Shown here: positions 17,955 through 21,054 of the stretch, piece after piece | Layout of the letters: each line of letters opens with the position of its first letter | Position numbering within the stretch: the first letter of the stretch is position 1 | From: an uncultured archaeon | GTDB lineage: Archaea > Asgardarchaeota > Thorarchaeia > Thorarchaeales > Thorarchaeaceae | Length of the DNA stretch: 64,000 nucleotides | Direction: 5' to 3' | NCBI GenBank assembly: GCA_964473825.1 | Contig: CAYYQL010000003.1 | Coordinates: forward strand, 89,640 to 153,639 | Translations under genes and position numbers: made by a program | Notes under the pieces: generated by a model | What the model was told of the DNA's origin: nothing | Seen by the model: the letters and a program-made list of their open reading frames with translations, nothing else | The model's database searches: none

Positions 17955-19538
17955 TTAGTCTTGGCTGATAACTACTCCCTTCACTAGGCCCGCGCTTATG
18001 ATCTCTTCAATCTTAACTCGGACTAGAGTCCCGGGTGAGTAGCCCCCGCTGACAGTCATGAGGGGTCCATCTCTCAACGGATAAACCATAGTGTAGCCAT
18101 GGTGGTTGAACGAGGGTTCAGCAGCAATGCCTCTGATAGTTTTGCCTACGTAGTCTTTCTTCTTCTGATAGTTAATCTCCTCTGCAACTCTTCTGAGTCG
18201 TTTTCCTATCGGGTCACTTTCGGATGCACTTGGGAACTCTTCAAAGGCGGAACCCGGCAAGGCCCTGAAGCCGTAGAGAATGATTCTCTCTGCCCCAGCC
18301 TTACTCAATTCCCTCATCATGTGCTCGGAATCTCTCACCGTTTTCTCGTTTTCACCTGGCAATCCATAGATGAAGTAGACGTAGGGATGCATCTTGTATT
18401 TCACAGCTGTTCGGACCGCACCCAGGACATCAGCTGGCTCCCCACATTTTCCAATCTGTTCTGCGTGTTCCGCCGAGCCCGTTTCAATGCCAATATTGGG
18501 GGATATATGCGATAGCACCCCGGATATTCTTCGTGCAACTCGCTCAGAGAAAAGGCAGGCCTTCATGTTCTCAATACTGATGTGACAATCCCCATCCGAA
18601 ACCTCGGGAATCTCTACTAGGGTTTTCAGCAGGTCGCTGATTGCATCGATATTGGCTGGCGGTTCGCACGGATTCGTCACTGGATATAATCCTCGTGAAT
18701 AGTCCAGGAAATCGGGAGATTCCAATACGATTCTGTGCACTCCGAGTTCAACGAGCTCCCTGACCTCCGCCACCACGCTCTCTCTAGGTCTGCTCCGCGG
18801 TGGCCCCCATATATTCGGGACACTGCAGAAGCCGCAACCGGGAGGAATTCCTTCAGGACAGCTTTGCCGAGAGGCACTCTCAGAGAAGTCACAGTTTCCG
18901 CAATGGCTGCATTCTCGCCCATCAGGAAGTGCGATTTTGGTTCTGTTGAAGTTGGAACACCCTCGTACCGTTTCTACGTAGACTCTGCTAGCCTGATAAG
19001 ACTTGTAATCTATGACGCGTAATGTGGAGGGCGGAAACTCCCTCCACAGCACATCTTCGGGTATGTGTATTCTCTCTCCTGTAAATATGGGGTTGTTGCC
19101 TTCGAGGTACGCAACACCTCTGATTTCCGTCAGGTCTATCTCATCATGAAGCATGCCCCTATCCACCAGCTGGGCAAGTGTTTCTTCACCTTCACCAACA
19201 ACCAGCACATCCGGCCTGCACTCTTGAAGTGTGTTCCGCCAATCAGTGGCAATGGGTCCACCGAGTAGTACTTTTCCATTCGGCCTTGCATGTTTCCATA
19301 TCGCAACGAATCTGCTAATGACCGGCAGATCCATGTTCATGCCACTAATCGCACAGTGACTGTATCCTTTCAGAATTCTCTTCGCAGTGAGAATCTCCTC
19401 AATCCTGTGAATCCGACATGATATGTCAGCTCTCTCGAAAACGCCTGCTATGGCACGCGGCCCACAGCCGATGGAATCCCGTGAGCTGCTCCTTGTTCCG
19501 TGGCCAGCACTTAGCGCGTCAACGATGACTACTGACAT
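17955..19538 (-). CDS. Radical SAM protein with B12-binding-like N-domain and TRAM-like C-terminus
   Basis: VVGEGEETL, ETVRGCSN...GCGFCS, IGIETGS, YFIYGLPGE. Confidence 0.88.
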   Translation of the reverse strand: MSVVIVDALSAGHGTRSSSRDSIGCGPRAIAGVFERADISCRIHRIEEILTAKRILKGYSHCAISGMNMDLPVISRFVAIWKHARPNGKVLLGGPIATDWRNTLQECRPDVLVVGEGEETLAQLVDRGMLHDEIDLTEIRGVAYLEGNNPIFTGERIHIPEDVLWREFPPSTLRVIDYKSYQASRVYVETVRGCSNFNRTKIALPDGRECSHCGNCDFSESASRQSCPEGIPPGCGFCSVPNIWGPPRSRPRESVVAEVRELVELGVHRIVLESPDFLDYSRGLYPVTNPCEPPANIDAISDLLKTLVEIPEVSDGDCHISIENMKACLFSERVARRISGVLSHISPNIGIETGSAEHAEQIGKCGEPADVLGAVRTAVKYKMHPYVYFIYGLPGENEKTVRDSEHMMRELSKAGAERIILYGFRALPGSAFEEFPSASESDPIGKRLRRVAEEINYQKKKDYVGKTIRGIAAEPSFNHHGYTMVYPLRDGPLMTVSGGYSPGTLVRVKIEEIISAGLVKGVVISQD

Positions 19539-19679
19539 TCTATTGAAAGAAGCTCAGCTTACTCCTCTTTACTCTTGTCAATGTCCTCTCTCTTCCCCCG
19601 CAGTTGCACTTATATGGCACTCTCACATCTATGGGTCTATCAACTTCAAGAAAAAATACATTTCAGGAGTCAGTAAACT

Positions 19680-20018
19680 CTGTCCGATGAAGGTGGAATT
19701 TGTCCCAATTGCGGTCTCCCTACAGATCTGTGCGTGTGTGAGACCATAGCGCAAGAAGAAGCTCGAATAACCGTGACTGTCGAACGAAGAAAGTGGGGGA
19801 GAATGACCACTGTTGTCGAAGGCTTTGATAAAAATATAGACCTTGGTGATATGGCCACGAAGCTGAAAAGCAAGCTTGCGTGCGGCGGTGCCGCGAAGCG
19901 TGGACATGTGGAACTCCAAGGCGACCATCGCGGTGTGATTGTTGATGTTCTTTCCAAGATGGGTTTCCCTGAGGAGTCAATCAATGTCGACTGGTCATTC
20001 AAGGGTGGACGAAGATAG
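19680..20018 (+). CDS. sui1: Translation initiation factor aIF1/SUI1, probable CTG start
   Basis: CPNCGLPTDLCVCE knuckle, RRKWGR..TVVEG, LKSKLACGG, ELQGDHR; in-frame TAA at 19674-76; AGGAG SD at 19665. Confidence 0.93.
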   Translation: MSDEGGICPNCGLPTDLCVCETIAQEEARITVTVERRKWGRMTTVVEGFDKNIDLGDMATKLKSKLACGGAAKRGHVELQGDHRGVIVDVLSKMGFPEESINVDWSFKGGRR

Positions 20019-20085: not shown

Positions 20086-21054
20086 CTATCTTCCAGTCGA
20101 TTTCGCATCGATTTCGAGTACTTCAACGATCTCCTTGTAGCGATTCCTCACAGTAACCTCTGTGACACGGGCCACTTCGGCAATCTCTCGTTGTGTCTTT
20201 CTTTCATCGAGCATTATTGAGGCAACATAGATTGCAGCTGCAGCAAGGCCAAGCGGATCTCTTCCAATTGTCAGTCCCTTCTCGCGGCTCTGCTGGAGTA
20301 TTTCTACAGTTCTCAGTTGTACAGGACTTGATAGATCCAGTTGGGACGCAAACCGGGAGATGTAGTCAATAGGATTGGACAGAGGTATCTTAACATTCAA
20401 GCTTCTCAACAGCAGACGATAACACTGTCCGAGTTTCTTCTTGTCGATTCTTGAAACATCGGCAACCTCGTCAAGAGGTCGGGGTTTGATTCGCATCCGA
20501 CAAGCGGCATATAGGGTAGCTGCAACCATGGCCTCGATTGAGCGTCCTCTGACAAGTTTCTTGATGATAGATTTTCTATAGAGTACGGCTGCAAGCTCCC
20601 TGATTGGTTTCGGAATGCCAAGTTGGGATGATAGCCTCTCCAACTCCGACATTGCCTGAGCTAGGTTTCTGTCCATTGAGCTATGCACGCGTGAACGTAT
20701 CTGCCATTTCCTCAGCCTGTAAACCTCAGATCTCCGTCGGGGGCTCAACTTCCTACCCGAAGTATCTCTGTCCCTCCAATCAATTACTGTGGAGAGACCC
20801 TTATCGTGAACGGTGTACCTCATAGGGGAACCGACGCGACTTCTTGCCTCTGCCTCTTCAGCGGTGAAGGATCTCCACTCAGCACCAGAATCAATGTGAT
20901 GATCTGATAGAACAAGGCCACATCCCCCACATACTCTCTCACCACGAGCGAGGTCTTCAACGACAAGCTCAGAAGCGCACTCCGGGCAAACGGTCTTTTC
21001 TGTTGGCTCAGGAATACCTTCTTTCTCAGTGGAATAGCCATGTACGCTCTTCAC
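20086..21054 (-). CDS. tfb: Transcription factor B
   Basis: CPEC..CGGCG Zn ribbon, EWRSF, HDKGLST, two cyclin repeats, TEVTVRNRYKE. Confidence 0.97.
   Translation of the reverse strand: MKSVHGYSTEKEGIPEPTEKTVCPECASELVVEDLARGERVCGGCGLVLSDHHIDSGAEWRSFTAEEAEARSRVGSPMRYTVHDKGLSTVIDWRDRDTSGRKLSPRRRSEVYRLRKWQIRSRVHSSMDRNLAQAMSELERLSSQLGIPKPIRELAAVLYRKSIIKKLVRGRSIEAMVAATLYAACRMRIKPRPLDEVADVSRIDKKKLGQCYRLLLRSLNVKIPLSNPIDYISRFASQLDLSSPVQLRTVEILQQSREKGLTIGRDPLGLAAAAIYVASIMLDERKTQREIAEVARVTEVTVRNRYKEIVEVLEIDAKSTGR

Follow-up and report, generated by a model that had tools for sequence, protein, structure and literature searches.

Does a gene whose product rejects weak start codons itself begin at one, and does such a start let the product limit its own synthesis? 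The question is raised by the aIF1 (SUI1) gene in the stretch of DNA analysed here (64,000 nucleotides, called the window throughout), in which the first canonical start codon of the gene lies inside a conserved domain. A preliminary description of the window proposed that translation begins upstream of it, at a near-cognate CTG, and that this start serves a feedback loop on aIF1 synthesis. The host MAG (3.27 Mb, 95.7% complete, 103 contigs, 49% G+C) has its nearest named relatives in Candidatus Thorarchaeota, of the Asgard group. The sites at issue, and the flanking genes that served as matched controls, are as follows.

17955-19538, minus strand: divergent radical-SAM gene with an ATG start and without a Shine-Dalgarno sequence (SD); matched control
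19566-19577, minus strand: conserved box AAGAGTAAAGA, about 30 nt 5' of the radical-SAM ATG
19607-19616, plus strand: TATA-like putative promoter box CACTTATATG, with TTATAT at 19610-19615, about 65-70 nt 5' of the aIF1 start
19665-19669, plus strand: SD AGGAG, 10 nt before the CTG
19674-19676, plus strand: in-frame TAA, which shuts the frame two codons ahead of the CTG
19680-20018, plus strand: aIF1/SUI1 coding sequence, 112 codons plus a TAG stop (20016-20018); sole copy in the genome
19680-19682, plus strand: CTG, the putative aIF1 initiation codon, homologous to GTG or CTG in Thorarchaeota relatives
19687-19749, plus strand, +1 frame: out-of-frame ATG opening a 20-codon dead-end frame, judged no aIF1 start
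19698-19700, plus strand: ATT, the Ile codon of ICPNC; the sole other start that would retain the zinc knuckle, rejected
19701-19739, plus strand: zinc knuckle CPNCGLPTDLCVC, in frame and beginning 5' of the first canonical start, from the alignment with PDB 4MO0
20086-21054, minus strand: convergent TFB gene; matched control

The coding sequence matches Pfam SUI1 (PF01253) at window positions 19758-19970 with 65.5 bits, against a curated cut-off of 25.5, and this is the one PF01253 match across the 3.27-Mb genome. As aIF1 is therefore single-copy, its odd start cannot be excused as that of a decaying paralogue. The predicted protein (P0001) also matches M. jannaschii aIF1 in PDB entry 4MO0 (E 1.9e-30; residues 8-104 against chain residues 4-101), the chain sequence of which is also present in entries 5JB3 and 5JBH. 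This alignment places residue 8, the Ile of ICPNC, opposite chain residue 4, and the CxxC...CxC N-terminal zinc knuckle of archaeal aIF1 is present in the window's protein. By analogy with the S. solfataricus and P. abyssi factors, it is presumably a start-codon fidelity factor; in S. solfataricus, aIF1 disfavours or destabilises complexes formed on non-AUG codons, and in P. abyssi it gives preference to mRNAs that are well positioned (PMC4705826, PMC6237735).

From the TAA to the first Cys the in-frame codons read ACT CTG TCC GAT GAA GGT GGA ATT, so that a protein retaining the knuckle can start only at CTG 19680 or ATT 19698. No canonical codon (ATG, GTG or TTG) occurs in the frame before GTG 19734, the start given in the ORF track. 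This GTG specifies the Val that separates the last two of the four Cys, and a start there, inside C-V-C, would lose three of the four zinc ligands. The preliminary description had placed AGGAG 10 nt before the CTG, the TAA at 19674-76 and the ATT at 19698, had put the knuckle 5' of the ORF-track GTG, and had named the CTG and the ATT as the sole initiators that include it. All of this agrees with the sequence on re-reading, with the refinement that the GTG lies within the knuckle; the out-of-frame ATG 19687, formed by GAT GAA, had been overlooked. A run of eight codons free of canonical starts has a chance of about two in three and is not unusual. What gives weight to the odd start is that a conserved domain lies 5' of the first canonical codon, and what the relatives show.

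aIF1 loci were collected from 77 Thorarchaeota species and anchored on the zinc knuckle. The codon homologous to CTG 19680 is GTG in 61 of them, CTG in 15 and possibly ATT in one; ATG, which the preliminary description had raised as something relatives might show at this position, occurs in none (0/77), and neither does TTG. Codon 2 encodes Ser at 73 of the 75 loci, with six spellings in use (TCC, TCA, TCG, TCT, AGC and AGT), and an amino acid held through six synonymous codons argues that translation passes through this codon. A GGAG lies 10-11 nt 5' of the start in 69 of 74 loci, and an in-frame stop between SD and CTG, as in the window, is also found in the CTG species L003, L004, L006, L009, L010, L020 and L045. 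Aligned SD spacing peaks at 7-11 genome-wide and the AGGAG-CTG site of aIF1 scores 9; its SD is a 5-mer only, weaker than the SDs of other CTG-start genes. The same CTG is present in two further MAGs of the host's genus, which come from different projects (L003/L032 and L004/L033). As it is common to MAGs of three separate assemblies, a base-call error at 19680 is unlikely.

In a tree built on a concatenation of three proteins, radical-SAM, TFB and aIF1 (82 rows, IQ-TREE quick mode, only the starred branches being trustworthy), 12 CTG species from several genera, including the host's genus, group together in a single clade (SH-aLRT 93). L009 and L010, a further CTG pair, fall outside this clade, and the start-codon label requires a minimum of 4 changes within the family. 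To judge from these sequences, CTG at the aIF1 start is inherited rather than erroneous and characterises a Thorarchaeota clade of 12 species or more. The CTG start put forward in the preliminary description is upheld by the same-genus MAGs, by this clade with CTG where most Thorarchaeota have GTG, by the SD spacing and by the retained Ser, and we consider it very probable that aIF1 translation starts at CTG 19680. Of the CTG-state loci, L022 has an in-frame ATG six codons upstream, which leaves its start ambiguous. In L018 (genome G004) the aIF1 N-terminus has been rewritten (…NIQEDVVCSRCG) and offers no canonical start; its best candidate is an ATT 11-12 nt after GGAG; L053, a close sister of L018, retains the usual GTG-Ser-… form.

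A box of the form ACTTATATG or ACTTTTAAGG lies 55-72 nt 5' of the aIF1 start in essentially all Thorarchaeota loci. Read from archaeal promoter architecture, this box is probably the promoter, and its position in the window would give a leadered aIF1 mRNA with a 5' UTR of roughly 40 nt, dependent on the SD. With TFB convergent and the radical-SAM gene divergent, the transcript should be monocistronic. No conserved RNA structure was found around the start across 22 Thorarchaeota sequences (4 weak pairs, without compensatory changes), and the window's own 103 nt around the start folds worse than shuffled versions (z +1.6). Masking of the SD or the start by RNA structure is therefore rejected. 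A search of the MAG with ARAGORN found just 19 tRNAs, with no initiator among them, and is uninformative.

The other start that would keep the knuckle, ATT 19698, would make aIF1 an AUU-led gene in the manner of infC, with the AGGTGG of its Glu-Gly-Gly codons acting as SD. This hexamer (19690-19695) is a good match to the anti-SD, the codon is kept as ATT, ATA or ATC in all relatives, and ATT or ATA apparently starts aIF1 in other Asgard families. The AGGTGG ends 2 nt before the ATT, however, giving an aligned spacing of 5 that is too short against the genome optimum of 7-11, and the upstream GGN Gly codons vary at third positions, with GGC GGA in most relatives, so that the SD is lost. The Ile is conserved at the amino-acid level across archaeal aIF1 proteins, and the Ser-Asp-Glu-Gly-Gly before it is conserved as protein, with TCN/AGY switching at the serine. 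Spacing and the loss of the SD in relatives lead us to reject this start, which we regard as highly improbable. Still less credible is initiation at ATG 19687 in the +1 frame followed by a -1 shift near GAA-TTT into the aIF1 frame, whether the shift is programmed or reflects a one-base error of assembly. Re-reading one base after ATG AAG GTG GAA does yield M-K-V-E-ICPNCG, which resembles the N-terminus of M. jannaschii aIF1, and an earlier annotation gave S. solfataricus aIF1 a -1 frameshift, but that case turned out to be a sequencing error (PMC8211752). There is no slippery heptamer at the site, the ATG is missing wherever relatives write GAC GAA for GAT GAA, and three MAGs of the genus are identical base for base around it. 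The frameshift is rejected on two grounds: the ATG is unconserved, and the reading frame ahead of it shows conservation at the protein level.

The ORF-track start would be correct if GTG 19734 began a 94-residue aIF1 without the knuckle. It is the first canonical start in the frame, and some archaeal aIF1 proteins have no knuckle. Against this, the GTG has no SD and is the codon of the conserved Val of C-V-C, and the knuckle upstream of it is perfectly conserved in 77 of 77 species, which would be senseless if it were untranslated. A variant, in which C 19680 is a miscalled G or A, conflicts with the finding of CTG in MAGs of three separate assemblies and in about 12 further species. We give next to no credence to either form, and CTG 19680 is retained as the start.

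CTG starts also occur in other genes of this genome. A genome-wide scan took 2,361 long ORFs and scored all sense codons 5' of the first canonical start for a spaced SD 5-mer. CTG tops the 61 sense codons for a correctly spaced SD, with 18 of 323 against the 7.2 expected from a background of 2.2%; first starts with such an SD are 275 ATG, 106 TTG and 59 GTG. CTG thus makes up roughly 2% of SD-led starts in the genome, a rough estimate, made with an ORF set compiled for this analysis and an SD defined by a 5-mer, and one in which GCG, also above background, shows the level of noise. In four genes besides aIF1 a CTG start is needed, as their Pfam domains begin at residues 2-14 and their first canonical starts lie 16-49 codons downstream. 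These genes, and another recognised through its orthologues, are listed by contig and position in the host genome (G000).

C10:38288-40375 (L111): Rad50/SbcC-like ATPase, CTG start needed for its Pfam domain
C7:61368-62423 (L112): FAD oxidoreductase, CTG start needed for a GxGxxG motif 5' of the first GTG
C2:153593-155815 (L113): DUF1156 methylase, CTG start needed for its Pfam domain
C1:87466-89271 (L115), minus strand: receiver-histidine kinase, CTG start needed for its Pfam domain
C33:15645-17588, minus strand (loci L261-L290): Zn-ribbon/PUA/PAPS-reductase gene, CTG behind GGAG, from orthologues

In Rad50-like orthologues from 30 Thorarchaeota genomes, the exact position of the CTG, which is limited to the host's genus, carries ATG, GTG or TTG. 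The canonical starts at this position show that the CTG is read as a start, and that the Rad50-like instance is recent. The Zn-ribbon/PUA/PAPS-reductase gene has the deepest conserved CTG start in this analysis; CTG, often with a stop just before it, is its start in 17 of the 19 Thorarchaeota genomes scored, across all genera, and TTG is found in one genus. It occurs in aIF1-GTG and aIF1-CTG species alike and spans genera more widely than the aIF1 CTG, so long-term retention of CTG is not peculiar to aIF1. No link was visible between the aIF1 start state of a species and its use of CTG in the Rad50-like and PAPS-reductase-like genes, although two genes are too few for this comparison. The preliminary description had considered that CTG starts might be equally frequent genome-wide; they turn out to be rare, yet real elsewhere, with four genes confirmed. 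The safer result is that CUG appears to be a working, heritable start codon in Thorarchaeota. The best-supported reading of the wider pattern is that tolerance of CUG is a habit of Thorarchaeota as a whole, some genes having been CUG-led since the family radiated. In a 2020 review, AUG, GUG and UUG are the only start codons given for archaeal initiation (PMC7531240).

Among the matched controls, radical-SAM synteny holds in 80 loci and the gene starts with ATG in nearly all of them. With no SD, and with the conserved box about 30 nt before the ATG, the gene probably gives a leaderless mRNA, unlike the SD-led, non-ATG aIF1 and TFB genes. The TFB gene of Thorarchaeota relatives has, in nearly all species, a GTG or TTG start preceded by GGAGG; ATG occurs once. 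This avoidance of ATG by TFB indicates that such avoidance is ordinary for some SD-led Thorarchaeota genes. TFB is the second persistently non-ATG gene at the aIF1 locus.

A survey of other Asgard archaea covered 66 loci in 26 families. aIF1 starts with ATG in at least 10 families, with GTG in several and with TTG in one, and near-cognate candidates are CTG in f4 (2/2), ATA in f8, f15 (2/2) and perhaps f24, and ATT in f9. The ATA candidate of f15 stands behind AGGAGG-N9, and two Hadarchaeota aIF1 genes read GGAGGTG-N8-CTG with a stop two codons upstream. Rpo10, in which the Met position is fixed by M-I-I-P-V-R-C-F-T-C-G, was used as a control. Its Met position is ATA, ATC or ATT in f3, in one f5 genome and in 3 of 5 f9 genomes, and ATG or TTG in Thorarchaeota. 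aIF1 has near-cognate codons in about 6 of 27 families, and Rpo10 in 3 of about 20, a comparison based on a single control gene with f8 and f15 unscored. Once Rpo10 is scored alike, near-cognate enrichment specific to aIF1 across Asgard archaea is unsupported, and a weak site is not more characteristic of aIF1 than of TFB, the PAPS-reductase-like gene or Rpo10. The near-cognate Rpo10 codons (L185, L190, L196 and L198 in f3; L215, L217 and L218 in f9; L222 in f5) lie a few bases after GGTG or GGAGG; the start in f3 is ambiguous, because the SD there overlaps a GTG that lies in frame, three codons upstream. The Rpo10 N-terminal motif was not found in L212-L214 (f8 and f15), where the Pfam match begins at profile position 7. 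f8 and f15 are the two families with apparent ATA aIF1 starts, and their N-termini may be unusual more widely.

Overall, the explanation we prefer, with a probability of about 0.6, is that CUG 19680 serves as the aIF1 start by a habit of the lineage and that feedback is an expected consequence. The initiation site of this fidelity-factor gene is itself suboptimal, its sole plausible start being a codon that leads only about 2% of SD-led genes. A leadered, monocistronic aIF1 mRNA, made from the TATA-like box near 19610, would bind the small subunit via AGGAG (19665-69), and this pairing would put the CUG, 10 nt downstream, into the P site. Initiator Met-tRNA would be accepted there despite the first-position mismatch, and the predicted product is M-S-D-E-G-G-ICPNCG..., with the N-terminal peptide (M)SDEGGICPNCGLP... 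The weak CUG start should lower aIF1 output. Since aIF1 destabilises non-AUG initiation complexes, the CUG-led aIF1 mRNA should be translated less when aIF1 is plentiful, and abundant aIF1 would in this way reduce its own synthesis, by the logic known from the AUU of infC and the poor context of eIF1 (PMC4705826). A measurable aIF1 feedback may exist, with a chance that we place a little short of even.

A more demanding proposal is that the CUG, or GUG in sister clades, is kept by selection as a dedicated sensor through which aIF1 translation runs inverse to the aIF1 level, as an archaeal counterpart of the AUU of infC and the poor context of eIF1. It is attractive because aIF1 is the very factor that rejects non-AUG starts (PMC4705826, PMC6237735). 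ATG and TTG are absent from the 77 Thorarchaeota species though one mutation away, the CTG clade covers several genera without reversion, and near-cognate aIF1 candidates recur in f4, f8, f15, f9 and two Hadarchaeota. In S. aureus a few other genes share near-cognate starts with infC, so the presence of such genes does not exclude a loop (PMC13009471). The pattern is not specific to aIF1, however, being shared by TFB with its GTG or TTG in nearly all species, by the PAPS-reductase-like gene with CTG in 17 of the 19 genomes scored, and by Rpo10, with near-cognate codons in 3 of about 20 Asgard families (for aIF1, about 6 of 27). The spread of the weak aIF1 site is also uneven: CTG is kept by the clade of at least 12 species and turns up again in f4 and in Hadarchaeota, but 61 of 77 Thorarchaeota species use GTG, an ordinary archaeal start, and many Asgard families use ATG. 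The other CTG genes remove the comparative argument that singled out aIF1, and they do not refute a loop. We regard a dedicated sensor as doubtful, and of the earlier step from CTG to feedback the CTG start survives, while the singling out of aIF1 by its near-cognate start does not survive the controls. It is more speculative still, and in our judgement distinctly unlikely, that the aIF1 level sets stringency throughout Thorarchaeota, with the roughly 2% of genes that have CUG or near-cognate starts forming an aIF1-responsive regulon whose loop is closed by the CUG of aIF1 itself; the candidate members would include the Rad50-like, FAD oxidoreductase and receiver-kinase genes and the PAPS-reductase-like enzyme.

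The preferred reading, a lineage habit with feedback as its expected consequence, can be set beside known systems. As described in the later literature, bacterial infC, which encodes IF3, has an AUU start and is autorepressed in translation (Butler et al. 1987, as cited in PMC4705826), and infC of S. aureus starts with AUA, near-cognate starts there giving about 10% of AUG output (PMC13009471). The aIF1 case is like infC in that the gene of a factor rejecting non-canonical starts is itself near-cognate behind an SD, and like S. aureus in that a few other genes share such starts with it. It differs in that IF3 and aIF1 are unrelated proteins, in the codon (AUU or AUA against CUG) and in that only part of the Thorarchaeota family is near-cognate, the rest having GUG. 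Autorepression is moreover proven for infC, by an AUU-to-AUG mutation, and predicted for aIF1. eIF1 is described as having its AUG in a poor Kozak context and as being negatively autoregulated (Ivanov et al. 2010, PMC2964218, via PMC4705826 and PMC6237735). It is the orthologue of aIF1 with the same fidelity function, and the proposed logic is alike, a high level of the factor giving less initiation on its own weak site. For eIF1, however, the signal resides in the sequence flanking the AUG, on an mRNA that is scanned, and for aIF1 it would be the codon itself on an SD-led mRNA. The cvfC1, ccpN and citZ genes of S. aureus (PMC13009471) have conserved weak starts positioned by an SD, as do the Rad50-like, FAD-oxidoreductase and ZnR-PUA-PAPS-reductase genes. 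In such ordinary genes conserved weak starts are most simply explained as tuning expression down; neither these S. aureus genes nor the Thorarchaeota genes just named have a role in start-codon selection, so no feedback would arise from their weak starts. A full-text search of the literature found no published account of a near-cognate start or of autoregulation for archaeal aIF1.

If the loop exists, control of the start-codon proofreader by way of the weak start of its own gene would be common to all three domains of life, and the archaeal case would sit in the Asgard archaea, next to the eukaryotic eIF1 circuit. If the regulon exists as well, the archaeal group nearest to eukaryotes would possess an SD-based, prokaryotic precursor of the eukaryotic stringency circuit of eIF1 and eIF5. 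What this analysis adds is the matched and control genes, and these lower the weight of the feedback reading. With CUG starts in use in Thorarchaeota, standard gene finders cut aIF1 within its zinc knuckle, and they would likewise truncate a few dozen other proteins per Thorarchaeota genome. In the host genome the parts cut away include the Rossmann motif of the oxidoreductase, the start of the receiver domain of the kinase and the N-terminus of the Rad50-like ATPase.
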